Shown here: positions 2,603 to 62,904 of the stretch, in pieces | Layout: every line of letters begins with the position of its first letter | How positions within the stretch are numbered: position 1 is the first letter of the stretch | Source of the DNA: Psammoneis japonica | Lineage: Eukaryota | Direction of reading: 5' to 3' | DNA: 64,000 nucleotides | NCBI GenBank assembly: GCA_008632985.1 | Contig: QPGO01000003.1 | Coordinates: 744,001-808,000 of the forward strand | Made by a program: the position numbers and the translations under genes | Notes under the pieces: model-generated | What the model was told of the DNA's origin: nothing | The model's database searches: none | Seen by the model: only the letters and a program-made list of their open reading frames with translations

Positions 2603-5600
2603 ATGGATATCCAAGAAGAACGGGGAAGACCACGAAAAGCCTGGAAACAGACTCGCGATCGTTCTCGACGTGTTCGTTTCTGGGTCAAGCATTCGTTAAC
2701 ATCGCTTTCCCATACGGATGCCTTTGCTGCGGATGATCCTAGACGCCATGATGATCAATCTCTTCAAGAAAAGAATTCATTTGCTGATCTGGAAAGCAAC
2801 AGTAACAACAAAGAGAAGGAGAGCTTTCACGGAGAAGCTGCAACATGTAACAACATTGACGAGGCAATGGCCGCTTTGCATACGCTGCCGGATTGCGCCC
2901 ATACCGAAACAACAACGTGGCAAGACGCACCTCAGATACAAGCCGATTATGACTGGATTCTCGATGGTGACCCAGAATGGGCGGCTGAATTCGATAAGAG
3001 CCAGAAACTACAACAATCTCTGATGCAATTGGAATTGGAGGACCCGAATCTTCAACTAGACTTTGATGTACTGGGGAGACAAGAGAATCGGTTTGCTAAT
3101 TTTGATGACGATTATCCAAAGTCACAAGCTGTAGAACAGATCGATGGGGACAAACCTCAGCCAGAGATTGATGACAGCTTTGGGGACTTTGTTTCTGCAG
3201 ACGCTCATGAGGAGGAAGATGGGTTGACGACGCCACACAAAGGCAAGGCCGTAACAAAGACAGAGGAATCAAAGACACCAGAAAACTCTGAATCAAATAA
3301 TAATACAGCTGTAAAGGAACCGACAGAAACTAAAGCGAACATGCCGTGTACTCCTGTCACCAAGAAGATTGGTACGGAAGAGCAGGAAGAACCTCGATCC
3401 GTGCACAAGTTGTTTCCGCTTGCGGACGTTTCAAGCCCAGAAGGCCGCTTCACACGACGGTGGCAGCTCAAGACTCGTCAGTATGCTGATGATGTTGAAT
3501 CTGCGGATCATTCAGATGATGAAATGGAAGAGGAGTTGCCGCCAGAGTACTACACGGAAGATTTTGATGACACACTGGAACTGCTGCTCGATTTGCCTTG
3601 GGAGCATGTATCTTGTTGGCAAGAGGAAGAGAATGAAAATAGAGATATCAGTGTGGTTGACGAGCACGTGACACAACAGCTATCAAACCTCGATGCGCTG
3701 CATGCACGAGTTAGAACAAAGCTGCTTTGTAAGATTCAAACGAGAGAAGAATTGCTTCAGGCCGCAAACCAGCTTTTGCATGACGTGGATTACAGCTTGG
3801 AAATGGCTGTCATGTACGTGAAAAGGGGAAAAGAAGCGCTCAATATAGCTGAAGGGGATGAACAAGATTGCTCGGGTGTTCGAGGTGCCGCGACATTAAT
3901 TATGGACGCGGACCGACGAGATCAGTTGCGACAGGTGAATGGAGTCTTGGAGAAATGTCACAAATTGTTCGAGACAGAAAAGTCGATATTGGCAAGGATC
4001 GAATCGTTTGGCGTTGGACCCATGATGCAAGATATATCCGTGGCGCGGGAAGAGTATCGACAGGTGATTGAGTGCGCGGCTCAGTTACGAAGGGACGTTG
4101 ACCATGACGAAAGTCTTTCCAGGTTAGCTTGTTTGGATCCGCTTAGGGAGAGAGCTTGTACCGTGGTTGAGAGATTTCTTGATCAAATCAATAAGGCTTT
4201 GACTTTATTTATTGGTCGTTCATGTCAAGTTGTGGATGGCTTTTCGAGTTGCCAATACGAAACGCTACTTCGGGCCAAGCTTGATCTGAGCAAACGTCAC
4301 GCATCAGATAACGTGAATCGCGATGAATATGAGCCGGTCGATAGTCAGAGCTGGTCAAGCTGTATACTCGAATCTCTGTGCTATGAGGCAGACAAATCCT
4401 TGGCTCGTGCCTTGCTCGATCCAACACTGAGTGAGGAGGAATCCGGTGAATCAGCCTATGACAAGGAACTTATTCACTTGAGCTTTGAACTGAACAACGG
4501 GACCGGAGACTCGGCAAAGCTGCGTACCATGATGCACAATCTCGTAACCATCCGTTTCGACCTGGAAGCGAACCAGAATCACTTGCCTTGGGTATTTCAT
4601 AAGCTGTGCATGCTTCTTGCTGATGTCCTACACACTCACTACTTGCTCGTGCAATGGCATCAGACTCCATTTGATCAACGCAACAAAGATATGGCGTACC
4701 TACATCGACAAAGGGACAACGGAATACCAGAAGAAAAGAAAACCGACGATTGTGTGAGTGTCACTGGCGCGCCGAGGGACGTTACAAACAACTTTGCCGC
4801 CGATGAAACGGATGAATGCGTGCAAACAACCGCTAATCCACAGAGGTATTCAGCAGAATGGGTGGATGATGTTGCCAATGTCGAGCGAGAGCTCATGGAT
4901 ACCAAGCTTCCTCTTTGGAAACACTGCGAATCAGTGCTGACCACTTGCTTGGATCAATACCTGCATTTTGCAGCGAAGAAGAGTCTTTTCCAGGCTGGAG
5001 ACAGTCCTAAGGACGGAGACCAGGCCTGGGCTGAGGAGTTGGAGAGATTGCATGATGTACTGCGCCTAACCCAGCAATTTCTGTTATTAGGCCACGAATT
5101 TCTCGGGAGAAATTCCTCAGCTGAGGTGACTTCTTTAAAGTACGGAGGACACGAAAGTGAACTAAGGGAGAAATTATGTGATGTGTTTCGAAAGCACTTG
5201 CGAGTGGTTCATGTTGAAGCAATGAATTCTACCGGGGGGCTACTGTGCAATGAAGACTGGAAGCTGCTTCATGTTGACTACAGCAATGGAATGAAGGTAC
5301 ATGGAAATAATCCCGCTGCAGATGATGGCGGCAGCAAAAAGCTTGCAGTCAAAAAGGTAACTCATGGTTGGCTTGACGCTTTTCCCATCGCCTTTATGTA
5401 TCGTCCCTCAGAGGGTTTCTTCTTTCTTGACAAAGGTTGTAACAGGACTACTGGAAGGCTTTGCACCAGAGTTGAACAACAAGCAAAGGTGCTGGGATAA
5501 TCATTTTCACATGAAAGGATACATGTTTCTCCGGCATTTGCCAGAGTACGTGAATAGTGGGAACCCATTCACTGCTGCATCACATACAATTGGTGAAGAT

Positions 5601-7151
5601 GTTGTAAGATCCAGCTCTTCCCCTATCCGTGTCACCGAATTGGCAAGAATAGGAAACGGCTTGTCAGACAAGCAAGCACCGTTGGCGACTGATTCCTCAA
5701 CGACGTACGATGCAGATCTCTTTGACACGATATTCTCTCTCCTGGGCGCCGGTGACCGTGTATTCCCACCACTTGCGACTGAAAGCTCAGTACAAGGTCT
5801 CGCAAAGTGGAGCTGGCGACTCATAATGATCATGAAGAAGCTCCCCATCATTCTTGAGGACATCGCCGTCGTCTTTGCAAACATTTACGATCTCTATTTT
5901 ACCACTGTGTTTCGATTGTGCGCTGGTAATTCAGAGTACGAAAAGATCCTTCTTGGTGTGGAAGCACGGGCTTCTCATTTCGGTACATTGGGCGAAAGGG
6001 AACCAGCATCGGAACTCGCTTCTCCTAGAAACCCCAAGCGCCGTTCTACCTCTGGATCTGGCATTTTTAAACGATCCAGACGCCCGAGTCGGTCAAAGAC
6101 GCCTCCGCAAGTGTCCGCTACAGCGGAAGCTGACATTTGTGCTCCTTGCCAATCCATAAAGGAGCTGCGCGAGTTTATTCTACGTGGCCAATCGAGTCTA
6201 CAAGGCATTGTCAATCTCTCCAAGACTGAAGAATGGATGACGGACCCAACCATTTCGTCCACGGAGGTACAAGACAAGGACACAATGACTGCCATTTGTA
6301 CCGTCTTGCAGAAGCGAGAGGGTGCCGCATGGAGTTGTCTCTTTGTCGCAACGCTCTTGGAAACTTGTTGGTGCCAAGTACAAGAGACCCTTGTGCAGTC
6401 GCACCATCTAGACGGCATACTTGGGGGTACCGATACGGTAAATGACGCATTGATAGAGGCGCTGGCTCCCCTTGGGGCCTACACCAAGTCAGTCGTGACC
6501 ATTGCCCCGTCACTTTCTACTCTTGCCTCTCAGATTGCCAGCGCTCGAGCCGGATTAGTCAAGCCAGTCATTCAGGAAATCATTTCAGAATCATGTTGGG
6601 GCGAATCCGAGGTTCATGTTGACACGAATGACTATATCCATGAGCTGACCGACTGGTACACAACCCTGTGGCTCTTTTTGTCGTCCAATCATCGCTCGTC
6701 GTCATCGTGTTGTCCCAAGGTGTTGGATAAGACATGGAATCACCTAGTCCACGCCGCATACGGTTCCATTCTGGATGGCTTTTGCAGTGTCGTTGGTCAC
6801 GTGTCTAACTTTCCACCCGAAAGCATTGCTCTCATGAGTATGGATGTCGTTGCCTTTGAATCGAGCATGGCCGAGATTCACAAAAAATGCGACAGCGCCA
6901 CGTGCTTGCAGCGTTGGATCACGGCACTCTATCTACCCACCCAAGATTTGATGCAATGGGTTATCGAGAATCACCAAGATTATCATTTGCATCATGTCTT
7001 GGCGTTGGTTGCCAGTCATGTTGGAGATGATGGACCGAGTGATGAAGAAAGCAAGTTGATTTCTGAAATCAAGACGCTTTATGCCAACAACAGTGAAGCA
7101 GGCTCAAGCGAAAAACCGCTAGAGACTATTGAAAAACATAACACCTGCTAA
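2603..7151 (+). CDS. VPS50: Syndetin/VPS50-like EARP tethering-complex subunit; exons 2603-5356 and 5436-7151
   Basis: The 977-aa and 595-aa ORFs join in frame via a phase-0 GT..AG intron at 5357-5435. FRKHLRVVHVEAMNSTGGLLCNEDW and the C-terminal ILDGF..ESIALMSMD..WITALYLP..DLMQWVIENHQDY resemble syndetin. Confidence 0.75.
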
Positions 7152-17370: not shown

Positions 17371-17752
17371 ATTGAAGCGAAATCAAAAAAGATGTGGCCG
17401 TTGGATTTGTGGTTGATGGGTCATGAGCTACTTCTACGCAATTTGTATGGTACAGTTTTTACGAGCCCATGTTTTGTTCCAGGTCTACGGCTCTAGCAGT
17501 GACCCCTGACTCACGTAGTGGCATGTCGACGCGCGAACAGCCAGAATGAATCGAAAAATTTGGAGTTCGCGCAAGTTCGCGCATCACCGCACCCACGACT
17601 TCGCCATCACGCGGATACGCTTTCCTCTTTCCTCTCTCCTCTCTCTTGAAGCTGGAGTACAGTGCATCCAACACCAAAACCCAAAACACGACAGCGGGGC
17701 GAATCCCTGTTACAACGTTTGCGACAACAACACCTCTTTCTTTTTGCGCATC

Positions 17753-19696
17753 ATGGCTTCATCATCTTCTGATTCTTCATGGCGTCAAATTGATATTGCC
17801 AAACAGAAAATTGCCATTGAACGGGAACGTCTCGAGGTGGATCGACTCTTGATCAAGGCGGAAAAGAAAAAATTACGTTTGCAGGAACGCAAACAGAATG
17901 AATTGAATGAAAAATCAGAACAACAAGCAAGTCTCGAAAAGGAATTAAAGACGGTCCGTGCGGAATTGGAACAAACCAACGATGATTACATCCAAAAGGA
18001 AAAAGAATGGATTGCCAAGACTGCAAATCATGAAAAGGAAATTGCAGGCTACAAGAACCAAGTGGAGAGTCTGGAGCAAGATTTGCAAGTCGTCAAGCAA
18101 GACTTGACCGAATTGGAGGATATCAAGAATGAACGAGACGAGCTGCAATTGAAACAAGAGGAATTGGAGGAGGATTGGAAAGAAACGCAAGAGGCGCATC
18201 GAAAAGAAATTGAAACGTGGGAGGAAAAAGTAGCAGATCATGAATCCGAGCTAAAAGAAAATCAAGACAAGTTTATGGAATTGGAAATGAAAATGACGAG
18301 TGAATTGAAAGCTCAAGAAGAGAAACATGAGGAGGAGGTGGAGGAATTGAAGAAGCGTATTTCCGAGCTTGAGGAGGAAAACAAAGACTTGAAGAGCAAA
18401 GTAGGGGTTGCAGCTGGCGTTTTGGGTGGAACAACCGCATACGGCGTTGCAGAGGAGTCTGACGACGACGATACTGAAATAATTGAGCAAGCGGTGGCAA
18501 ACAATAATGTTGCCAAACCTCGTGGCATGCCACTTGGACAACTAGATGCGAGTCCGGAGCTGGCAAAGAAGAGTGCAATAACTATGGATATGGCCAATTC
18601 ACACGAGCCGCCGCCGCCGGCAGCAGGCGATCCCGCACTGCTCAAGTTGCAAGAACAATTGGCTCAAATGCAAATGCAACAACAAAAATACGTCGAGAGT
18701 CGTGAACAGCAACGGGAGGAGCTTTTGAATTTGTTGCAGGGAGTGGGAGACAAGAAACAAGAGGTGTTTGATGAAAGCTTTCCCGAAATTGAGGCACAGG
18801 TGGATCGGTTGGGAAAACAATTGGATGAGTTGGAGGGTGAATTGTTGAGTGATTATGATGAGGATTTTGATTCCGATTACACGTCGGACGAAGACGATCA
18901 TCATCATCATAGCCCGAGTCCCAACGTTACCAAGTCCCATTCCAAGAAACCTCCGTCTGCTGTAGCAAAGCACCGAAAGAGCTTGACGACGGATGGTGTA
19001 TCCGCACAGCAAACTGCTTTGCAAAATAATGACAGTTCCACGAAATCGTTTGAATCATCCACCGACAAGAAACGGCGTCACGTGACCAAAACACAATACG
19101 AAAACCACCGATCTGGTTTAAAGGGAATGTACTCGGGTTATGTCAATGATCAGGGTGAACCCGATGGTCAGGGTAAATTGCGTTGTAGCAATGGTGATGT
19201 GTATGAGGGCGAATGGTTGAATGGGGTCATTCACGGACAGGGAGTGTACACATGGTCGGACGGGGATTTGTATACGGGTCCGTGGAGTGATGGACTTCGT
19301 CATGGTCATGGTGTTTTCTTGTGGATGGATGGGCGTTACTATGATGGAGATGTAAGTGTCATTGATGCTCGTATGGTGTGTGCTATGTGTTTGTGATGGC
19401 GTGTTGCTCATTGCGTTTTTGCACTCTATACACAATAGTATTTGAATGGCATGCGCCACGGCAAGGGTACAACGACACAAAATGACGGTTCACGGTACGA
19501 AGGTGACTACAAGGAGGATCAACGACACGGGCATGGTGTGTACGATTATCCAGATGGACGCACCTACAAGGGAGAGTTTCAGAATGATCGTAAACACGGC
19601 AAGGGTATTCTGACATCGAGTGATGGTGAAGTACTTGACGAGGGCATTTGGGAAAAAGATGAATACATTCGGTACACGGCTGTAACGCAAAAGTAG
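17753..19696 (+). CDS. Coiled-coil protein with C-terminal MORN repeats; exons 17753-19351 and 19439-19696
   Basis: E/K/Q-rich heptad region followed by repeats such as YEGEWLNGVIHGQG, YTGPWSDGLRHGHG and YEGDYKEDQRHGHG. Intron 19352-19438 (GTAAGT..TAG) keeps frame. Confidence 0.85.
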
Positions 19697-20815: not shown

Positions 20816-21182
20816 GCGGACAAGAGTATTTTATTAAAGCAATAATAGTAGTAGTGGTGGTACATTCATGTGTTTGTTGTTGTTGTTTCGTGTTGAGTAT
20901 TGTGTCGTTATGGTGCGATGGCAGTGTTCAGTGTGCTTTGTGTCTCGCGTCGGTCATTGTGTTTCCCGCCAAAATGAAACTACATGATTAGCTCGTACAC
21001 TACACGTAGCGATCTCATAGATTACACATGGAGACTACTACGAGGTTTATTTTGCATAGACAAGTGATTCCCGATTCCCGACTTTTTGATTTTTTTTGAT
21101 TTTTTGCAGCCGACGCAACGATCGACACAAAGAAAAAGGAGTCGCAGCTACTTTAGCAGCGACAGTAACAGCAAAACGTACA

Positions 21183-21806
21183 ATGCAGGGTTTAGTTTTT
21201 ATTCTCGCGCTTGTTTTGTTTGCTGTGGCTGCTCAAGGATTGTGTCTACCGTTATCAAAAAGTGCAAGAAATTACAAGCTGCTGTACGCTTCCTCACCAC
21301 AACAACAAGAGCCGTCTCCACAGCAACATCATCACTCGGCATTCAAGACAAGACGCGACACATTGGGATTCTCAATGATTCTCTCAAGAAATTAACAGGC
21401 CGCGGTGTCTTTGAACGCATGGGACTCGAAGAAAATGCAATCGACGACGTCTTGTCCAATGATCGTTTTGTATTAATTTCACACGACACCCAAGACGATC
21501 CCATTTATAATTTTGGTAATGTCGCTTGTTTACAAGCCTTTGTTCGAACATGGGATGAATTGTGTCAAATTCCATCACGAGAATCTGTCGTGATTTCTTC
21601 TGAAGATGATGTGTTGCGACAAAAACTCATGAACAAGGTTACACACGATGGATATGTCGAGGGAGCGTCTGGAATTCGAGTAACGGGGACGGGCGATTGA
21701 TTCGATTGGTGGATGCCGTCGTGTGGAATTGTCATAATGATGAACCTATTATGGACAAGCGGCATTGTTTGATCGTGAATTGCTAGAGGATGCAGGGACA
21801 ATGTGA
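21183..21806 (+). CDS. MEKHLA (PAS-like) domain protein with signal peptide; frameshifted in this sequence
   Basis: SHDTQDDPIYNFGN..QAF..TWDELCQIPSRES..VTHDGYVEGASGIR, then in shifted frames IRLVDAVVWNC and YYGQAALFDR. N-terminus is MQGLVFILALVLFAVAAQG. Confidence 0.75.
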
Positions 21807-23449
21807 GCACAACACATACAGCTAACGCATTCGCCGAGAGAGCAATAGAATACGCAACGCCTCCGTTTGAGGCGAGTCGGATTCCCCGTGCGAGCATCAC
21901 CATCATCATATAGTAACACAATAAGCACCAATCTACTATATTTATGCTGGTCCCCTGTTATTGCATTCACACATACACACAAAACTTAAAACCACACACT
22001 ACTTCTTCCGAAAGCTCAAACGTCTCAACGGGATGGAACCGCAGTTGCATTCATACCACAAAAATCGTCTGAGGTAGCAGCCGCCACCATTATGACTGGT
22101 GCTGGCTCCTCTTTACGTTCAAACAAATTCTTGACAAAATTGTCAAAGACCAACAAATTTGCGTACTGCTTGTAGTTCATTGGTGGAAAGTTGGCGGCAG
22201 GCGTTTCTTGTAGATAGGTCTGTTTGATATACCCCATGATCCGATTGGGTTGCCTGTTGCTGGATCGACAACGTGGTCATCATTGACCAGAGGCTTGTTT
22301 TGGAGACGAGCGTCATTGCGAATCTTGGAGACCAGCTCTGGATCATCCCCAAAAAGGACCGCCAAGCATGGTGAGGCCATGTCATCTCTTTATGCTTTGC
22401 TTGATAGTTCTTGTGTGCTTTGGCTCGCCACGACCAAAATCTCTTGATCAAATAGTCACCTAAACCTCCCATGATCATTCTCGGGGATCCCCAAAATCCT
22501 CAATTCGATTAGCTTGCGTCTGGAATTCGAGTGACTGGCGACGGGCGATTGATTCGATTGGACGATGCCGTCGTGTGGAATTGTCATAATGATGAAACCC
22601 ATTGTGGACAAGCGGCATTGTTTGATCGTGAATTGCTAGAGGATGCAGGGACAGTGTGAGCACAACACATACAGCTAACGCATTCGCCGAGAGCAATAGG
22701 ATGACGCAACGCCTCCGTTTGAGGCGAGTCGGATTCCCCGTGCGAGCATCATCATCATCATCATATAGTAACACAATAAGCACCAATCTACTATATTTAT
22801 GCTGGTCCCCTGTTATTGCATTCACACATACACACAAAACTTAAAACCACACACTACTTCCGAAAGCTCAAACGTCTCAACGGGATGGAACCGCAGTTGC
22901 ATTCATACCACAAAAATCGTCTGAGGTAGCAGCCGCCACCATTATGACTGGTGCTGGCTCCTCTTTTCGTTCAAACAAATTCTTGACAAAATTGTCAAAG
23001 ACCAACAAGTTTGCGTACTGCTTGTAGTTCATTGGCGGAAAGTTGGCGGCAGGCGTTTCTTGTAGATAGGTCTGTTTGATATACCCCATGATCCGATTGG
23101 GTTGCCTGTTTGATAATACCCCATGATCCGATTGGGTTGCCTGTTGCTGGATCGACAAAACATGGTCATCATTGACCAGAGGCTTGTTTTGAAGACGAGC
23201 TTCCTTGCGAAACTTGGAGACCAGCTCTGGATCATCCCCAAAGGATGTACCGGTTGGGATGCCCGACGGAACGGGTCCTCAGTTTTGAGTAAAGTCCACC
23301 AAGTATGGTGAGGCCATGTCGTCCTTATGCTTTGCTTGATAGTTCTTGTGTGCCTTGGCTCGCCACGACCAAAATCTCTTGATCAAATCGTCACCTAAAC
23401 CTCCCATGATCATTCTCGGGGATCTCCAATCCTCAATTCGATTAGCTTG
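21666..23449. repeat. Tandem duplication (~21666-22515 and ~22516-23449) of the convergent 3' ends of the MEKHLA and Rieske genes
   Basis: Both units start gcgtctggaattcgagt and end cgattagcttg. The ORF tail ...DDFCGMNATAVPSR occurs twice (22025 and 22877). Confidence 0.9.
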
Positions 23450-25615
23450 TCCTTGCATAACAACCGAATCTTCAAGTGAAATATGGTAATTCCAATTGTT
23501 CACCAAGAGAGTCAGCATGGGCAACATGCCGGGAATGCCGGTAATGGTGGAGAGGATTGGTCCACGAGGCAAGTGCTGTCGTAGCAACACGCGAGTTCGC
23601 TGGGGCGCCACTGGGATAATGTGGAATTCTTCTTCAAAGCCACTCACACCGCCGTGGCGAACAATGTTGGGTGGGTCAAAACGAAGAATCTTTTTGGGTC
23701 TACCACCCGCTCCAAGCTTTCCGAGGTGTCCCATTCCACAGTCGTCCACAAAGGCTGTAAGCTTGAGCTTTGGTAAATTCGAGTTGAGCATGCCAATGCT
23801 CTCAATCGGCGGGACACTGCCGTCGTGAAGGTAAAACAAGTGTGGGCTGTCCAAGTTGTTTTCCACAATGTAAGAATAGTCCACGGCATAATCCATAACC
23901 GTGTCGATTGGCACTGTTTCCATATCACCCTTGCGGCGAGAAGGAAGCAAGGACGGATCCGCCTCCAATACATTTCCACGCCACACGTACACCAATCCTT
24001 CGTGCTCCACGGCAGCTCGGTGGTTTCCGCAATTGGCGTCTGTCACTTTGTTTAGAAAGCGCGAATCATCTCCGCCAGAAACGACAGAGCCAGTGGTTTC
24101 ATCCACGGTCTTGAGCGTTGGTACATGCACACAGTCTCCTTTTGGTCCAAAGCGCCAACCATGGTACATGCAAACAAGTTCGCCCTTTTCGACTTGGCCC
24201 ATGGACAGAGGTACCGATCGATGAGGACAAACGTCCGCCATGGCCACGAGCTCACCATTGTTGTCGCGATAAACGACCAAGGGTTCGCCCCAGAGGCGTG
24301 TCGCAAATGGCTTTCTTTTCTTGTTTGTTTTACGCGAGAGGACGGCATCCGAGGGTGATTCATATCCGTCAATTTGCCACGGATAAGCGACCGCATACCA
24401 AACGTTTTCAAACGATGGTTTTCTTAATAGATCTGGATTATTGGACTGTGTCGGTGTGTAGGAAAAGACCAAGCCTCCAACGCGGTCATTAATGTGCTTG
24501 GCAATCTCCCCCTTGGCAGTCGCTGCCTTGCCGTCTCTGCTCTCGTCGTTATCTTGAGTATTTTTCTTCCGCGAAGCTGCCAAACAGAAATGAACCGCTC
24601 CACCCCAGCGACTACGATGCTCCAACAGCTCCATGTTGGCAATCGAGTCGAAAAAGATGCGTGCTTCGTTCGAAAAGGGAACGTCCACAAAGGGCTTGAG
24701 CGAATCCGTCATGCACAAGAGCGTCTCTGTACCACTTGCGGCAAAGGTAAAGAGTTCGTCCATAATGTTTCGGACCGCATCCTCATTGACGTAAAACAAG
24801 ACGGCTTCCCAAACAAACAACGTAGGAATGCCTTGTTTCAGTCCACCCTTTTCCCTCAGGGTCTCAATCAAACTTGCGGGATTCTCGCCACCGCAGTCGT
24901 TTAAATCTAGTGGCACCAACCGGGGCCCCTTATTTGTTAAGTCCCAATCCGGATCATGATTTTTCTGAAAGTTCTCGTACAGAGTTTGCTTTCCTGCAGT
25001 GACTTGAGGAAGATCCACTTCGACAAAGTTAATCTTTTCGTCGTGCTCATGTCGATAACGTATCGCACGCGTGTCATAACCGGCTCCAAACAAGACGACA
25101 TTGCACTCGAGTGCTTGTCCCGTGGTTGCATCGGTGCAGGCCGGACTCGTTAAAAAGTGCTCGAGTGCGCCTTCAATAAATTCGGTACGAGCCTGGATCC
25201 ATTCAGTAAACTTTACAACAGGATCAAAGAGATTACTGCCGGCATTGGTCGTGACGAGACCACGAGTGGTGGGGGGCAAAAAGGTGGCAGCCACATCATC
25301 CTGAATCAAGCCGCGTTGGTTCAGCAAAGCACGGACCCACAAGACGCGAAGATTCTTCGAACTGTCCTTTATTGGATCGTCGTCAAAGGCGTGAAGCACA
25401 TCAAAAGCGGCGCCTGTGACGGCATCGCTGACGACACCAAACACATTTTGAGAGGCTGCCTGGCTCTTGTTGTTGCTTTCGGTGGAGGAGATGGGCAGTG
25501 CTGTTTTCTTCAAGACGGTTTTTCGGTTGTTGGGTGTGACAAAGGCATTCGCCCTGATGAGGGCAGTCGCCACAAGAAGGAGAAGAGAGTGCTTCATCAT
25601 GGGTCGCATTGCCAC
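22877..25615 (-). CDS. Probably plastid-targeted LCM-type SAM methyltransferase + Rieske non-heme iron oxygenase fusion; clean ORF 25615-23279, C-terminus probably continues via indels to 22877
   Basis: Signal peptide + ANAFVTP. MTase motifs: VVLFGAGYDTR, FVEVDLP, LFVWEAVLFY. Rieske motif: CPHR...CMYHGW. Mononuclear Fe motif: ENNLDSPHLFYLH. Confidence 0.88.
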
Positions 25616-25850
25616 TCATCCCTGAGACAGAGCAGAGGCAAACGACCACAATGCCATTCCAATCAGATTGGGCGAGCAGATGTTTTGGTTGAATTGACAT
25701 GACATCCAGATTATCGGCTTCAACAGAGATGATTGACATCAATCAGTGACACTCAATACGTAGACGGCAAGTAACGTAAATAAAGTGCTGGCTGATCAAA
25801 AATTTCCCTCCCCGCCGTAGAACTTGGTACAGTCTTCACGTAAAAAGATA

Positions 25851-27945: not shown

Positions 27946-28282
27946 TATCCATGACCAACAACTGACCCGCCGATCATAACGAGTGATCAAACGGACCACG
28001 TACGCACGGCCGGGGCAGGGGATATGAGAATCCGAATCATTCGACTGGATATGTCATAACGTCTTCTGAATAGTATCCTTCCGTTTTTGTCCGTTGAATG
28101 TTTTTGTATCCATCAAGTAGATACCATCATCTTTTATTCAAATGCCTATGTATTTATAATGTCAGTGTTGATCCAAAAATTCGAAAAAAATATTGCAAGA
28201 ATCCGCACAATGATCGGTTGCCAGTTGCCAGTGGGTTCCAGGTTGTGGACGAGTGAATACCGTGCTCAAGTAAGTTCTCACA

Positions 28283-29749
28283 ATGGGAACGACGACCTCA
28301 TCGCAAGAATCGCGAAAACATCCATGCTCATTGAGCATACGGCGACAGTCCAAGGCAATTCTGGGTCTTTGCATTGTGTTTGTTCTCGTCGGCGACTTTG
28401 GCATAGTGGAGTACGTTCGACTTTCGGATTCAACGACGCAATCAATTCACCACGAAAAGAAGAATGGAATGGAGCAAACAAAACAAGCAAACTCAAATCT
28501 TACTTCAAGACCACGGAAAATGCAATACACTGCTCTCGCTTCAAACGCAACAAATCGCACAGATGTAAAGGAAAATGTGGCGGCGAAACCAAGACAAGAA
28601 GCAATCTCAACATTTCCTACGAAACCAAGGATATTATTTCTAAATCCTGCTCTTGCGTCACAAGCACGAAAACCTACAGTCCAATTGGTTTATCCGATTG
28701 GTATGAATGCGAGCATTCCAAAACCGCCGGTCCGCGTCAAGAAAGAAGATCGTCCGTTTTACGAAGAATGCGAACCTATTGGTGATTGGCAAACGCGGTT
28801 TCATCCAACGTGCAATGCCATGCATGAAATTGACATTGCTGCTTTTAATGGTGACAACGCAAAAGCGCATGTTCTTTCGCGTCGTGGTACTTGGAGATTG
28901 GTTTGGAAAGTTCGTCTGGGCACCAAGTGGTTCGTATTGAAAACGTTGCATTTCGAACGCGAGTTCGATGCAAAGACATTCCCACATGCCATTGTGGATG
29001 CGATTGCAATGGAAAGACTCACTTCGTCACCCTTCCATGTCAATTCCTATGGCTTTTGTGGACAATCCATAGTTTCAGAGTATGCTCCAAATGAAGCAAC
29101 GGTTCTTATCAAGAATTCTCATTTCAGTGTTCACCGCCATGGTATTTTCTTCGCACGTCAGTTGGCACTCGGGATGCATCATATGCATTACATGGGCAAT
29201 GAAGGCTTACCATCATTTAGTCACAATGACATCAAAAGTGCCAACATGGTGTGGACATCGAATGGCCTAATCAAGTACAATGATTTCAATCTTGGTTTGC
29301 TACTTCGGCGAAATACAACTTCCAAGGAACCATGTGGATTCGCTCCCCACTTTATCAATCCAAAATGGCATGCCCCTGAAATAATCAAACATGATAGCTA
29401 CGTTTCGGAAAAGGCTGACATCTTTGCTCTGGGCAATATCTTTTTTCTCATCTTGACCAAGCACGACGCGTGGAAGCTAGAACTGGGTCGAAATCCGCGT
29501 ACGGAAACAAAACGGGAAAAGAAACTGGACGGTGTCCTGCCCTACCTGCCGGAAAAATATGCCAACACAAGTGTGTTTGAAGAGCGGGCAATAATTACTG
29601 CGTACAAAGCGTGCTTTCAGCATGATCCAAAGAACAGACCATCAGCACTCAGCTTGAGTCAAGCGTTTGCAAAAGTGATAGAATGGAGGAAAAAGGGAAA
29701 GAAAGGTACAGAACAGGAGCTACGGAAGCTCTTTCATCTAGTTGAATAG
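28283..29749 (+). CDS. N-terminally membrane-anchored protein kinase-like protein (paralog 1)
   Basis: 488-aa ORF. TM segment ILGLCIVFVLVG; motifs VLKTL, HNDIKSAN, NDFN, APE, DIFALG, and RP in subdomain XI. Confidence 0.88.
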   Translation: MGTTTSSQESRKHPCSLSIRRQSKAILGLCIVFVLVGDFGIVEYVRLSDSTTQSIHHEKKNGMEQTKQANSNLTSRPRKMQYTALASNATNRTDVKENVAAKPRQEAISTFPTKPRILFLNPALASQARKPTVQLVYPIGMNASIPKPPVRVKKEDRPFYEECEPIGDWQTRFHPTCNAMHEIDIAAFNGDNAKAHVLSRRGTWRLVWKVRLGTKWFVLKTLHFEREFDAKTFPHAIVDAIAMERLTSSPFHVNSYGFCGQSIVSEYAPNEATVLIKNSHFSVHRHGIFFARQLALGMHHMHYMGNEGLPSFSHNDIKSANMVWTSNGLIKYNDFNLGLLLRRNTTSKEPCGFAPHFINPKWHAPEIIKHDSYVSEKADIFALGNIFFLILTKHDAWKLELGRNPRTETKREKKLDGVLPYLPEKYANTSVFEERAIITAYKACFQHDPKNRPSALSLSQAFAKVIEWRKKGKKGTEQELRKLFHLVE

Positions 29750-30382
29750 GACACTCTTTCTTTGCGGCTAATGATCCCTCTCTAGAGTAGAGAGCGAGTC
29801 ATTTTGCGAGACAGTTGGCCGCTGAGATCAACCCAAATGTGAGAAACTGATCTCATCAACGGAAAAAAGCGTTCATGATGTGGCAAACGAATGCGATCGT
29901 CCTTGCTTTCCAGTCACTCCTGCTCTACCGGTAGCAGCTAACTGGTAGGCCCCCCTCTCTCTACTCTCTAGTAGTCCCTTGTAGTCCCTCCAGGCCCTCT
30001 CTACGGTACGGTACGGTAGGGCTAGCTCTCTAGAGAGCAGAGCAGTAAGGGCCCTATGTACTGTACGGTACAAGGTTTACGTCCGATGGACTTATTCGAC
30101 TTAACGTAGTCACGACTCGACTCACGACTCACCAAGCCGGCCGGTCCGGGAACTTTCCAACAGCACCATACTGACTCAGATAAATATTTCTATCGGTATG
30201 GATACACATTATTTGTTTGTACTGTAGGAGAGAATTATTTTTCGGAAATTTCCGCCGACGATCGCATGTCGCAACAAGTACTTCTAGGTAACAAGGTAAA
30301 GTACAAGGTTTAACAGTAACACGAACCTGGTAAGCACGTGAGCGTTTTCGATTCCTTCACTTACAGCTTACAGCAAGTTGTC

Positions 30383-31711
30383 ATGGTCGAAGCAATGTCT
30401 TCAACCGGAGAATCGCGTCAAAGTCGATGTTCACGGAGCACGTGGCGACGGTCCACAGCAATTCTAGCTCTCTGTTATGCCTTCTTTCTCATCGGTGACT
30501 CTGGCGTCGTCGAGTACATACGAATTTCGATTTCAACACCACAGTCAAGACACAACAAGAAACAAGCCAACTCAACATTTGTAGCAAGACCAAGGATAAT
30601 ACTGCTGTATCCGTCTCTTGCTTCAAAACCAACAAATCATACTCTCAGATCGGTTTATCCCATTGGTACGAATGTTAGCATTTCTAAACCGATCCCAATC
30701 AAAGAATTCGATCGTCCCTTCTATGAAGATTGCGAACCTTATGGTGATTGGCAGACGCAATTTCATTCAACGTGCAATTCTTTCCATGAAATTGACATTG
30801 ATGGGGCTTTCGAACGTGATAGGACAGAAATGCAAGTTCTTGGAGAAGGTTCGTGGAGATTGGTTTGGAAAGTTCGTCTGGGTGAGAAGTGGTTCGTATT
30901 GAAAACGTTGCGTTTCGAACAGGAATTCAATGAGGTGTCGTACCCACATGCCATTGTGGACGCGGTTGTAATGGAGAGACTCACGTCTTCACCATTTGTA
31001 GCAAATTTTTATGGCTTTTGTGGACAATCGGTTGTTACCGAATTTGGTCAAACGCCACTGAACGGTTTGATTCAGAACGTGAACTTTACAAGCAAACATG
31101 ATGGCATTTTCTTAGCGCGGGACTTGGCCATTGGAATGCATGATTTGCATTACATTGGCAATGCATCACAGCCAACATTTTGCCACAACGATGTGAAGAT
31201 TGCCAACTTCATTCGAGATTCGAAAGGCTTTATCAAATACAACGATTTCAATGTTGGTGTGCTACTTCGGCGCAACGCAACTTCCAAAAAACCCTGTGGA
31301 TTCCCTCCCTCCTACATCAACTTACGATATAACGCCCCAGAAGAAATCAGAAATCAGGCTTTCGTGACCGAGAAAGTTGATATCTTCGCTCTGGGTAACA
31401 TATACTTCCTTATCTTGACCAAGCGTGAACCGTTCCATTGGGAACCGGGTGGACCGCCACCCAAGGAAACAATGGTGCAAAACAAATTGAGCGGTATCTT
31501 GCCCTTCTTGCCGGAAAACATTGCCAACTCTACAATGATTGAAGAGCGGGCGTTGATCACTGCGTACAAAGCTTGCTTTCAGTCCGATCCAAATAACAGG
31601 CCAACGGCACTAAGATTGAGTCAAGCGTTTGGGAAAGTTATTGAATGGACTAAACAGGAAAAGAAAACTACTGACAAAGAGCTACGGAAGCTCTTTCATT
31701 TAGTAGAATAG
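30383..31711 (+). CDS. N-terminally membrane-anchored protein kinase-like protein (paralog 2)
   Basis: Motifs GEGSWRLVW, HNDVKIAN, NDFN, APE. Clear tandem paralog of 28283-29749, with the identical end ELRKLFHLVE. Confidence 0.88.
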   Translation: MVEAMSSTGESRQSRCSRSTWRRSTAILALCYAFFLIGDSGVVEYIRISISTPQSRHNKKQANSTFVARPRIILLYPSLASKPTNHTLRSVYPIGTNVSISKPIPIKEFDRPFYEDCEPYGDWQTQFHSTCNSFHEIDIDGAFERDRTEMQVLGEGSWRLVWKVRLGEKWFVLKTLRFEQEFNEVSYPHAIVDAVVMERLTSSPFVANFYGFCGQSVVTEFGQTPLNGLIQNVNFTSKHDGIFLARDLAIGMHDLHYIGNASQPTFCHNDVKIANFIRDSKGFIKYNDFNVGVLLRRNATSKKPCGFPPSYINLRYNAPEEIRNQAFVTEKVDIFALGNIYFLILTKREPFHWEPGGPPPKETMVQNKLSGILPFLPENIANSTMIEERALITAYKACFQSDPNNRPTALRLSQAFGKVIEWTKQEKKTTDKELRKLFHLVE

Positions 31712-61428: not shown

Positions 61429-62904
61429 ATGTATAAGTCTTTCGTGTTATTAATCTTTGTGTCGGTGTTGAAACTGCAATGGAAATGGGCGGAATCACTT
61501 ACGCTAAAAATGACAGCGTCGCCTCCTCGTCAGTCTGCTTCAAAGAACAGAAAGCATCGAGCATCTAGTAATACCAACATAGCCAAGGTTGCGGCGCCAT
61601 CTATAGGACAAGCAATTCAAGACGCTACTACCAGTTAAGAACTCTTGGCTGTAGCTAAAACTCTGTGGCTCCCAACGGATGAAAATCTCGCTCCACATTT
61701 CCGCACTCAGCGCATACACCACGAGAAGCGCCAGCGATGGAGTTCACAGCTACTGCACAAGCTAGGATGTAGTAGTACCTGTGGCATTGTGGACTGGGAG
61801 AACAACGATGCACTTGCACGAGCCGTCTTGGCTGCCGCTATCCCGTTTGATGACAAAGATTTACCCGGAAGAGAAGGACGTCATCTCCGAGATGCGCTCT
61901 GGGGATTGCACGCTGCGGCTGGAAAGAGTCATCTGACAGGAGAACAAGAGGTGCATATCGACATTTGCACAGGTATTGCGACAATGATTAGGCGAATAGA
62001 AGGAATGGCAAATGGTGTGTCCTTGCCAGAAGCCGTCGAAATGAGATGGGCTGCACGCGGACTACTATGCAGAATCGGAGCGAACCGGATACTGGGCAAA
62101 ACTGCCTCTGACGCAGACGTTGACGCACAAGAAATACTTGAACTAGCTATTCCTAATCTTGAGCGACGCACAAGTGCTCTTCCTTTTGATATTGTTCCAC
62201 TCGGTGTGGATTGGTCGAATCTGGTACAGGACAAGGAAGAAATCACAACGACTCTGCGAGACGCCATTCCATTTCAATTTGACACCATTGTGACGCGGTC
62301 GGGTTCGTCCGTGACGGAACGTAGAGGAACCGCATGGGTAACAGAAGACGGTATTGGGGCGCTGGCGTACAGTGGCAAGCTCATGCCTCCTCGTCCGATA
62401 CCTAATGTCGTTCGAGACACTATGCGATTGGTGGAAGAGCACACGTTTTCAAGCGACCTCGACGTCGGTCCATACTTTGACTGCGCACTCTGCAATCATT
62501 ATCCACATGGCGAAGCAGCCTGCAAATTTCATACAGATCCAGAGCATGGTCTTGTTTGGGAGCGCCTAACATGTGTCGTGGCTGCCGGCGACGAACGCCG
62601 GTTTGCCTTTCGTCCGATCCCCGGTACGTCTAGTTGGAGCAAATGGGACAGCCTGAGCGACAAGAATACAGAGGAGACAAGGCCTGCAGTGATTCATTTG
62701 TTTCCAGGAGACATTGTCAAAATGTGGGGTGTGTGCAATGATTGTTTTCATCATGCGGTTTATACAGCAGAACACGAGACTGGCAAAGGTGACGGGCGCG
62801 TAAGCTTGGTCCTCAAACGAGCCATTTCCCGTGGAGGAGGGAAACGAGGCCACGGGCTTGAGGGAAGAGGCAGACGGGCTCGAAGGCGATGTCACGCACG
62901 ATAA
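61429..62904 (+). CDS. AlkB-like 2OG-Fe(II) dioxygenase with a predicted signal peptide; one in-frame TAA at 61636-61638
   Basis: RRGTAW..LAYSGK..FDCALCNHY..FHTDPE (HxD)..FHHAV..RVSLVLKR. ORFs 61333 and 61645 are in the same frame. Confidence 0.8.

Follow-up and report, generated by a model that had tools for sequence, protein, structure and literature searches.

Methyltransferases of the LCM family methylate carboxyl groups, as is known from LCMT-1/PPM1, TYW4 and TcmP, and among Rieske enzymes SdmA is reported to oxidise a methyl all the way to a carboxyl group, the kind of chemistry that a proposed route to chlorophyll c3 (chl c3) would require. An oxygenase and a methyl-ester-forming methyltransferase (MT) that act on one substrate occur naturally fused in ALKBH8, a precedent in architecture only: its domains, an iron- and 2-oxoglutarate-dependent (Fe/2OG) AlkB oxygenase and a Trm9-type MT working on tRNA, are unrelated to those described here. 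We analysed a 64,000-nucleotide stretch of the genome of Psammoneis japonica (assembly GCA_008632985.1, contig QPGO01000003.1, positions 744,001 to 808,000; hereafter the window, with positions counted from its first letter), in which an earlier note, made from the letters alone, had pointed to an MT-Rieske oxygenase fusion and proposed it as a candidate chl c3 synthase. We conclude, with a probability of roughly 0.65, that the diatom carries here a nuclear gene whose product is imported into the plastid, an enzyme of two domains, a Rieske monooxygenase and an LCM-type MT, belonging to an uncharacterised family and acting on a plastid small molecule.

The gene lies on the minus strand, where an open reading frame (ORF) of 776 amino acids (aa) runs from 25609 to 23279, with its ATG at 25609-25607 and a closing TGA at 23281-23279. 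As read from the translation and its domain matches, the parts follow one another in the order bipartite presequence, LCM-type O-methyltransferase, linker, alpha3-type Rieske/non-haem-iron monooxygenase and conserved tail. This is a new architecture assembled from known enzyme kinds, and the fusion seen in the earlier note, with a putative plastid presequence, an LCM-type MT and a Rieske oxygenase whose iron site is intact, is thereby upheld. What carries our reading is observed at this locus and in its relatives: the identities of the domains, the intact cofactor and S-adenosylmethionine (SAM) motifs, the folds of the models, the presequence motif and the distribution of fused and split forms.

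The N-terminal half matches Pfam LCM (PF04072) over aa 88-285 (E 3e-19; bit score 70, gathering score 22.3), as do all nine aligned family members, and conservation extends to about aa 55-345, taking in a family-specific motif, SSKNLRVLW. The SAM motifs GxGxDTR, the acidic residue of EVD and EAxxxY are all present in the protein, and the LCM/Ppm1-type motifs noticed earlier fall at aa 175-181 (GAGYDTR), 197-201 (EVDLP) and 267-273 (WEAVLFY). Across the family the residues G-G-D-T-R are kept in 89/90 rows, being nearly invariant in fused and MT-only proteins alike. Searched against the PDB, a profile of the MT family recovered LCMT-1, Rv0731c, ML2640 and PPM1 (2e-13 to 1e-7), and the domain as a single sequence matched no chain at E<=0.01. 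The AlphaFold2 (AF2) model of this half has a predicted local distance difference test score (pLDDT) of 89.3, and its best Foldseek matches are 3o7w, 2uyq, 6id6, 3iei, 1rjd and 2zwa; the fold neighbours of the predicted structure are LCMT-1, ML2640c, Rv0731c, PPM1 and TYW4.

The C-terminal half contains a Pfam Rieske domain (PF00355; aa 428-502, E 1.5e-22), in which C461, H463, C480 and H483 are the [2Fe-2S] ligands; the CPH and CMYH motifs of the earlier note start at 24229 and 24172, respectively. The mononuclear iron site that it had also proposed is found as E583-x3-D587-x2-H590-x4-H595 at 23863-23825, accompanied by E713-D714 at 23473-23468. The AF2 model of this half (pLDDT 82.7, predicted template modelling score 0.84) retrieved 176 PDB chains at E<=0.001 in Foldseek, with dicamba monooxygenase first and GxtA/SxtT, guaiacol O-demethylase and NdmA among the other top matches, in agreement with the sequence search. 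The closest NCBIfam entry is SdmA (NF052579), at 69 bits against a cut-off of 600 bits, so that the protein is not a member, and the nearest relatives outside the family, at 31-35% identity, carry PaO and VanA_C domains. Judged by these features, the oxygenase half is of the alpha-only Rieske monooxygenase type, related to the PAO/VanA class. The PaO domain itself (PF08417) has no match in the window protein at E<=1 and a weak one in three of nine family members (best 0.017); the protein is therefore no demonstrable member of the CAO/PAO/TIC55 group.

At its N-terminus the protein has a hydrophobic signal-like stretch leading to ANA/F at aa 20-23, in line with the signal peptide and ANAF motif reported before. 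This end resembles the diatom ASAFAP-type plastid-import motif, a small residue followed by Phe that directs import into complex plastids. A [ASGC]-F pair within residues 13-45 is found in 24 of the 33 fused homologues with full N-termini, compared with 34% of shuffled N-termini, and the motif in these homologues likewise consists of a small residue and then Phe after a hydrophobic stretch. The N-termini of haptophyte MT-only proteins begin alike.

A word-indexed database search listed 102 relatives, 74 of which have both Pfam families, and an exhaustive HMMER search gave 96 cluster representatives at E<=1e-30. Named diatoms with the fused form are Ditylum brightwellii (P0004, 70% identity, from a transcriptome), Corethron hystrix, Thalassiosira exigua and Thalassiosira sp.; to these are added three Triparma species among the bolidophytes, Aureococcus and Chrysophaeum among the pelagophytes, and the dictyochophyte Florenciella. 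The fused form is intact in Triparma, Florenciella and Aureococcus. A Pseudo-nitzschia fragment is intact as far as it goes: a 5'-truncated transcript that clusters with a gene-model fragment of Pseudo-nitzschia multiseries is 74% identical over aa 496-775. In haptophytes the two halves are separate genes, with Rieske-only proteins in Prymnesium parvum (P0174) and Phaeocystis cordata and MT-only genes in P. parvum (P0435), Chrysochromulina tobinii and Emiliania huxleyi. The database searches returned no named match from outside diatoms, bolidophytes, pelagophytes, the dictyochophyte and haptophytes; this absence is weakly supported, because only about a quarter of the database proteins carry names. 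A literature search on the locus tags of the named homologues found no papers. What looked like four Aureococcus paralogues (P0130, P0325, P0353 and P0090) did not stand as such, three of them being identical or nearly so over the oxygenase region and thus copies from different strain assemblies; JL720_10657 and JL720_9155 are the only two loci that belong to a single strain (prefix JL720), and entry P0090, the second locus of that strain, has a truncated MT part. The haptophyte-type MT-only proteins (P0435, P0440, P0494 and others; alignments A2, A3 and A6) contain a long Gly/Pro-rich repeat of GGPP-like units between presequence and MT domain, which the fused forms lack.

Ninety rows below 80% identity went into an oxygenase tree (IQ-TREE quick search, LG+G4, with SH-aLRT as the only support measure). 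The family, with 80 rows, is split with a support of 100 from an outgroup consisting of ten unnamed PaO-bearing proteins. Within it there is a diatom-plus-Triparma clade of 23 rows, where the window protein sits on a short branch (0.11) among 15 diatom rows, alongside Ditylum and Corethron. Six rows make up another diatom clade, that of the Thalassiosira exigua type; the pelagophyte clade has 12 rows and Florenciella two. The remaining clade of 36 rows unites 33 Rieske-only proteins, including those of Prymnesium and Phaeocystis, with three fused forms at its base, a position which suggests that fission is derived. In the midpoint-rooted MT tree (88 rows) all 39 MT-only rows group in a single clade, away from the fused proteins; the two halves are therefore not fully congruent there.

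The alignments also indicate that the two cofactor sites have fared differently after the split. E583, D587, H590, H595, E713 and D714 are kept in 43/43 fused and 10/10 outgroup rows, two fused rows lacking the stretch that holds the Rieske ligands. Within a Rieske-only subclade of 31 rows, all four Rieske ligands are present in every row, whereas H590, H595 and D714 occur together in 3/31 and the entire iron-site motif in 2/31. Pairwise alignments give H595N for the Prymnesium Rieske-only protein and show that the one from Phaeocystis cordata has lost both the second His and the Asp, with a deletion of about 40 residues. From these counts, and those for G-G-D-T-R, it follows that the MT and the Rieske cluster stayed constrained after fission and that the canonical oxygenase site did not.

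The uninterrupted ORF from 22877 to 25615 that the earlier note had described is broken in the window by the in-frame TGA, and an open version of it was found in reads. After the TGA the frame runs on for 133 codons (23278-22880) to a stop at 22879-22877, and this continuation aligns with the C-terminal tail found in 8/8 homologues compared. The family consensus of the tail, IPxGTSFGD ... TPAANFPPxNYKQY ... LLVFD, is kept in the haptophyte Rieske-only proteins too (consensus of alignments A4 and A5). As a variant check, contigs from two DNA runs of one sample were compared with the gene. One read-derived contig of 2863 nt covers 22884-25700 with 6 substitutions and 0 gaps and has GGA (Gly) at codon 777; a 256-nt contig from the other run has TGA there, like the window. 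Truncated and read-through variants therefore coexist in that sample, and they are probably alleles, although the contigs are no independent confirmation of the organism's biology, because the assembly may itself have been made from these runs. The read-through contig further differs by S303P, S420L, L696F and two silent changes. S303P (window 24703) is seen in contigs of both runs, and the compared fused homologues keep Ser at this codon; S420L (24351) and L696F (23522) are confined to the read-through contig.

The 3' end of the gene lies within a tandem duplication (period about 852 bp; copies 21685-22494 and 22537-23429). The duplicated DNA takes in the final ~900 bp of the gene, the intergenic sequence and the 3' part of a convergent MEKHLA gene. 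The downstream duplicate is degenerate, with a deletion of about 48 nt and frameshifts. Relative to it, the gene's own copy has insertions of 2 nt and 35 nt within the tail, which together keep the frame open, so that the distal tail (TPAANFPPMNYKQY...LLVFDNF) remains encoded; a conserved tail motif of about 15 residues, of VDPATGNPIGSWGI type, sits out of frame and is replaced by unrelated residues. The 2863-nt contig has the same scrambled tail structure as the window. Inspection by eye for an intron with which the TGA or the scrambled stretch might be spliced out gave GT..AG candidates of only 21-56 nt, none of which restored the homologous reading.

As to what the protein might do, a coupled two-step action on one plastid metabolite is most likely. 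The Rieske cluster would receive electrons from plastid ferredoxin and hand them to the mononuclear iron, which would hydroxylate or otherwise oxidise a C-H group, typically a methyl, on a plastid small molecule; the fused MT would next methylate a carboxyl of that molecule, and a methyl-ester function would thereby be installed or processed. Since the two modules are found as separate genes in haptophytes, it can be argued that they work together. Within this scheme it is the electron donor, the order of the steps, methylation of a carboxyl rather than a hydroxyl and the single shared substrate that we infer. Several points weigh against it. A fusion speaks for coupling, not for step order or a shared substrate, and in the split clade, at least, the alignments suggest an MT that functions with no canonical oxygenase beside it. 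Methylation of a carboxyl by the window MT would follow from the chemistry of the known LCM family members. The match to the TIGR00027 subfamily, at 65.4 bits, is under the curated NCBIfam cut-off of 93.55, and that to Pfam VanA_C over the iron-site motif, at 13.5 bits, is below the gathering score of 23.5. Finally, the copy in the window carries a nonsense variant, and a segment of its tail is scrambled.

This last point leads to the proposal that the gene is becoming a pseudogene in this organism, whatever the role of the family elsewhere. The window and one read-derived contig both have the TGA ahead of the conserved tail, the insertions of 2 nt and 35 nt scramble the tail motif in both variants, and an unstable tandem duplication covers the 3' end of the gene. 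We nevertheless regard such decay as quite unlikely, given that the core of 776 codons is open and retains every cofactor and SAM residue, that the tree branch is short, that the GGA variant is open as far as the normal stop and that the insertions compensate each other in frame, leaving the distal tail encoded. A different proposal accepts a working protein and changes the relation between its halves: the Rieske half would be an O- or N-demethylase and the LCM half would methylate, forming a 'writer plus eraser' of methyl groups or a catabolic pair acting on a plastid metabolite or protein. In its favour, the closest solved structures, by sequence as well as by fold, belong to monooxygenases that remove methyl groups (dicamba O-demethylase, guaiacol O-demethylase and NdmA), and the decay of the oxygenase site in split lineages in which the MT persists fits two separable activities. 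However, structural nearness among Rieske monooxygenases tells little about substrate, an antagonistic pair in one chain would run a futile cycle, and a comparable fused system was not found in the literature searched; we therefore consider this arrangement very unlikely.

The remaining proposal gives the coupled action a particular product, chl c3. Pelagophytes, Prymnesium and Chrysochromulina hold this pigment, and to our knowledge Phaeodactylum lacks it. A 2024 review (PMC11879082) treats the c3 enzyme as unidentified and predicts a CAO-like oxidation followed by an esterification, and a 2026 review covers a synthase for chl c1/c2 only. The statement in the earlier note that no enzyme is assigned to the c3 step thus agrees with the 2024 review and with the literature searched, where neither c3 synthase and c3 biosynthesis nor Rieske together with LCM gave anything relevant. 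With chl c2 or divinyl protochlorophyllide as substrate, the Rieske half would oxidise the C7 methyl in steps until a carboxyl results, which the LCM half would methylate to a 7-methoxycarbonyl group. The fused pair fits the chemistry predicted in PMC11879082, CAO, itself a Rieske oxygenase, oxidises the same C7 methyl (PMC9615114), and the window protein has a putative plastid presequence. Moreover, every named holder of the family is a diatom, a bolidophyte, a pelagophyte, a dictyochophyte or a haptophyte, and these are largely c3-bearing lineages. Chl c3 is recorded for Bolidomonas pacifica and a florenciellalean dictyochophyte in PMC12696874, for Phaeocystis (0.65 pg per cell) in PMC2639444, and for a Pseudo-nitzschia culture in PMC13540600, this being the genus of the 74%-identical transcript; E. 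huxleyi has the pigment as well. Named matches from Phaeodactylum or Thalassiosira pseudonana, the latter of pigment type DIATOM-1 (PMC5322898), were not found in the database searches, which is weak evidence of absence.

Set against this, D. brightwellii transcribes the 70%-identical fused orthologue P0004, yet Table II of PMC2639444 gives chl c3 as 0 for a D. brightwellii culture at high and at low light, in the same HPLC (high-performance liquid chromatography) run as Phaeocystis; strains may differ and traces may escape detection. Furthermore, no fused gene is found in the haptophytes rich in c3, most of whose Rieske halves are no canonical oxygenases, as the 3/31 count for H590, H595 and D714 indicates, and a Rieske half of E. 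huxleyi was not found by name among 104 matches. Of 51 diatom species only about 12% have chl c3 as a major pigment in place of c1, and five others have traces of it, whereas the diatom clade holds at least 15 rows below 80% identity; the missing PaO domain also counts against a c3 synthase. The earlier note had named a fusion equally common in c3-lacking algae and absent from c3-rich haptophytes as a reason to drop the idea, and part of this pattern is what we see, in Ditylum and in the split haptophyte halves. The candidacy that it put forward thus keeps its chemistry, its presequence and its taxon range, and is damaged by Ditylum and by the mostly decayed haptophyte oxygenase half. The distribution tests made here give no support for c3 as the general role of the family, and a c3 synthase is, in our view, a doubtful reading of the gene. 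It might be saved if the fused enzyme made c3 in diatoms, bolidophytes, pelagophytes and dictyochophytes, one chain carrying out both the C7-methyl oxidation and the carboxyl methylation, if haptophytes, once the gene had split, had retained the MT for that ester and replaced or remodelled the oxidase, and if c3 in Ditylum were a trace or conditional pigment, a combination that we hold to be just as tentative. For the c3 step there is no concrete candidate besides this family, and the comparative data weigh as much against it as for it.

The features of the locus are collected in the table below.

Table. Parts of the fusion gene and its duplicated 3' end, in window coordinates.
Feature	Position	Strand	Basis
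Putative presequence with start codon, aa 1-24	25538..25609	-	Translation
LCM-type SAM-dependent methyltransferase domain, aa 88-285	24755..25348	-	Pfam PF04072
Rieske [2Fe-2S] domain, aa 428-502	24104..24328	-	Pfam PF00355
Catalytic non-haem-iron domain, aa 503-776	23282..24103	-	Ligand table, AF2 model, Foldseek
In-frame TGA, codon 777, polymorphic (GGA/Gly elsewhere in sample)	23279..23281	-	ORF list, read-derived contigs
Same-frame continuation, 133 codons and stop	22877..23278	-	Alignment with 8 homologues, ORF list
Scrambled stretch in tail, with 2 nt and 35 nt (tandem repeat) more than the downstream copy	23083..23163	-	
Degenerate tandem duplicate of 22537-23429, period ~852 bp	21685..22494	not assigned	

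Elsewhere in the window, a MEKHLA-domain ORF (21068-21700, plus strand, E 3e-23) converges on the fusion gene and has its last ~60 nt within the tandem duplication. Two protein kinase ORFs adjoin each other at 28274-29749 and 30320-31711 (plus strand), a MORN-repeat ORF lies at 17519-19396 and a Syndetin_C ORF at 5361-7151. An AlkB-like 2OG-Fe(II) oxygenase ORF (61639-62904, plus strand; PF13532, E 3.5e-9) has no established link to the fusion gene, and together these neighbours (MEKHLA, MORN, the two kinases, Syndetin_C and the AlkB-like oxygenase) gave no functional hint for it. Between 52000 and 60000 the G+C content is 0.54-0.56, as against about 0.48, GC skew is negative, and both strands have long ORFs that overlap one another in several frames, none with a Pfam match; this part is possibly repetitive or foreign DNA.

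Chl c3 is a major light-harvesting pigment of the sea and a standard chemotaxonomic marker, and for its 7-methoxycarbonyl step the family offers the right pair of chemistries plus a plastid address, as a testable candidate. Even if the product is not c3, this is a conserved, lineage-restricted family of putative plastid enzymes in ecologically dominant algae. Its evolution is unusual, in that ochrophytes have it fused and intact and haptophytes have it split, with the MT and the Rieske cluster conserved and the catalytic iron site decaying.

Compared with described systems, the MT half has in common with the LCM superfamily (LCMT-1/PPM1, TYW4, ML2640c and Rv0731c) the Pfam LCM domain, the fold and the GxGxDTR, acidic-loop and EAxxxY motifs, and it differs in its N-terminal SSKNLRVLW motif, the oxygenase fusion, the putative plastid presequence and a TIGR00027 score beneath the cut-off. 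With CAO, PAO, TIC55 and PTC52 the window protein shares a plastid-targeted Rieske [2Fe-2S] centre, the mononuclear-iron motif and a single-subunit (alpha-only) organisation, whereas it has no PaO match and possesses an N-terminal MT and a distinct conserved tail. SdmA, a bacterial sterol 4-beta-methyl monooxygenase and the best NCBIfam match, has no MT. The ligand motifs of the oxygenase half are identical to those of DdmC, VanA-type enzymes, guaiacol O-demethylase, NdmA and SxtT/GxtA; this group supplies the best PDB matches both by sequence (DdmC, 2e-16) and by fold (Foldseek E 4e-16, TM (template modelling) scores of 0.6-0.7). The DdmC/NdmA/SxtT enzymes are only 17-20% identical to the window protein, come from bacteria or cyanobacteria and act on small aromatics or alkaloids, and in contrast to the Psammoneis protein they have neither a fused methyltransferase nor plastid targeting.

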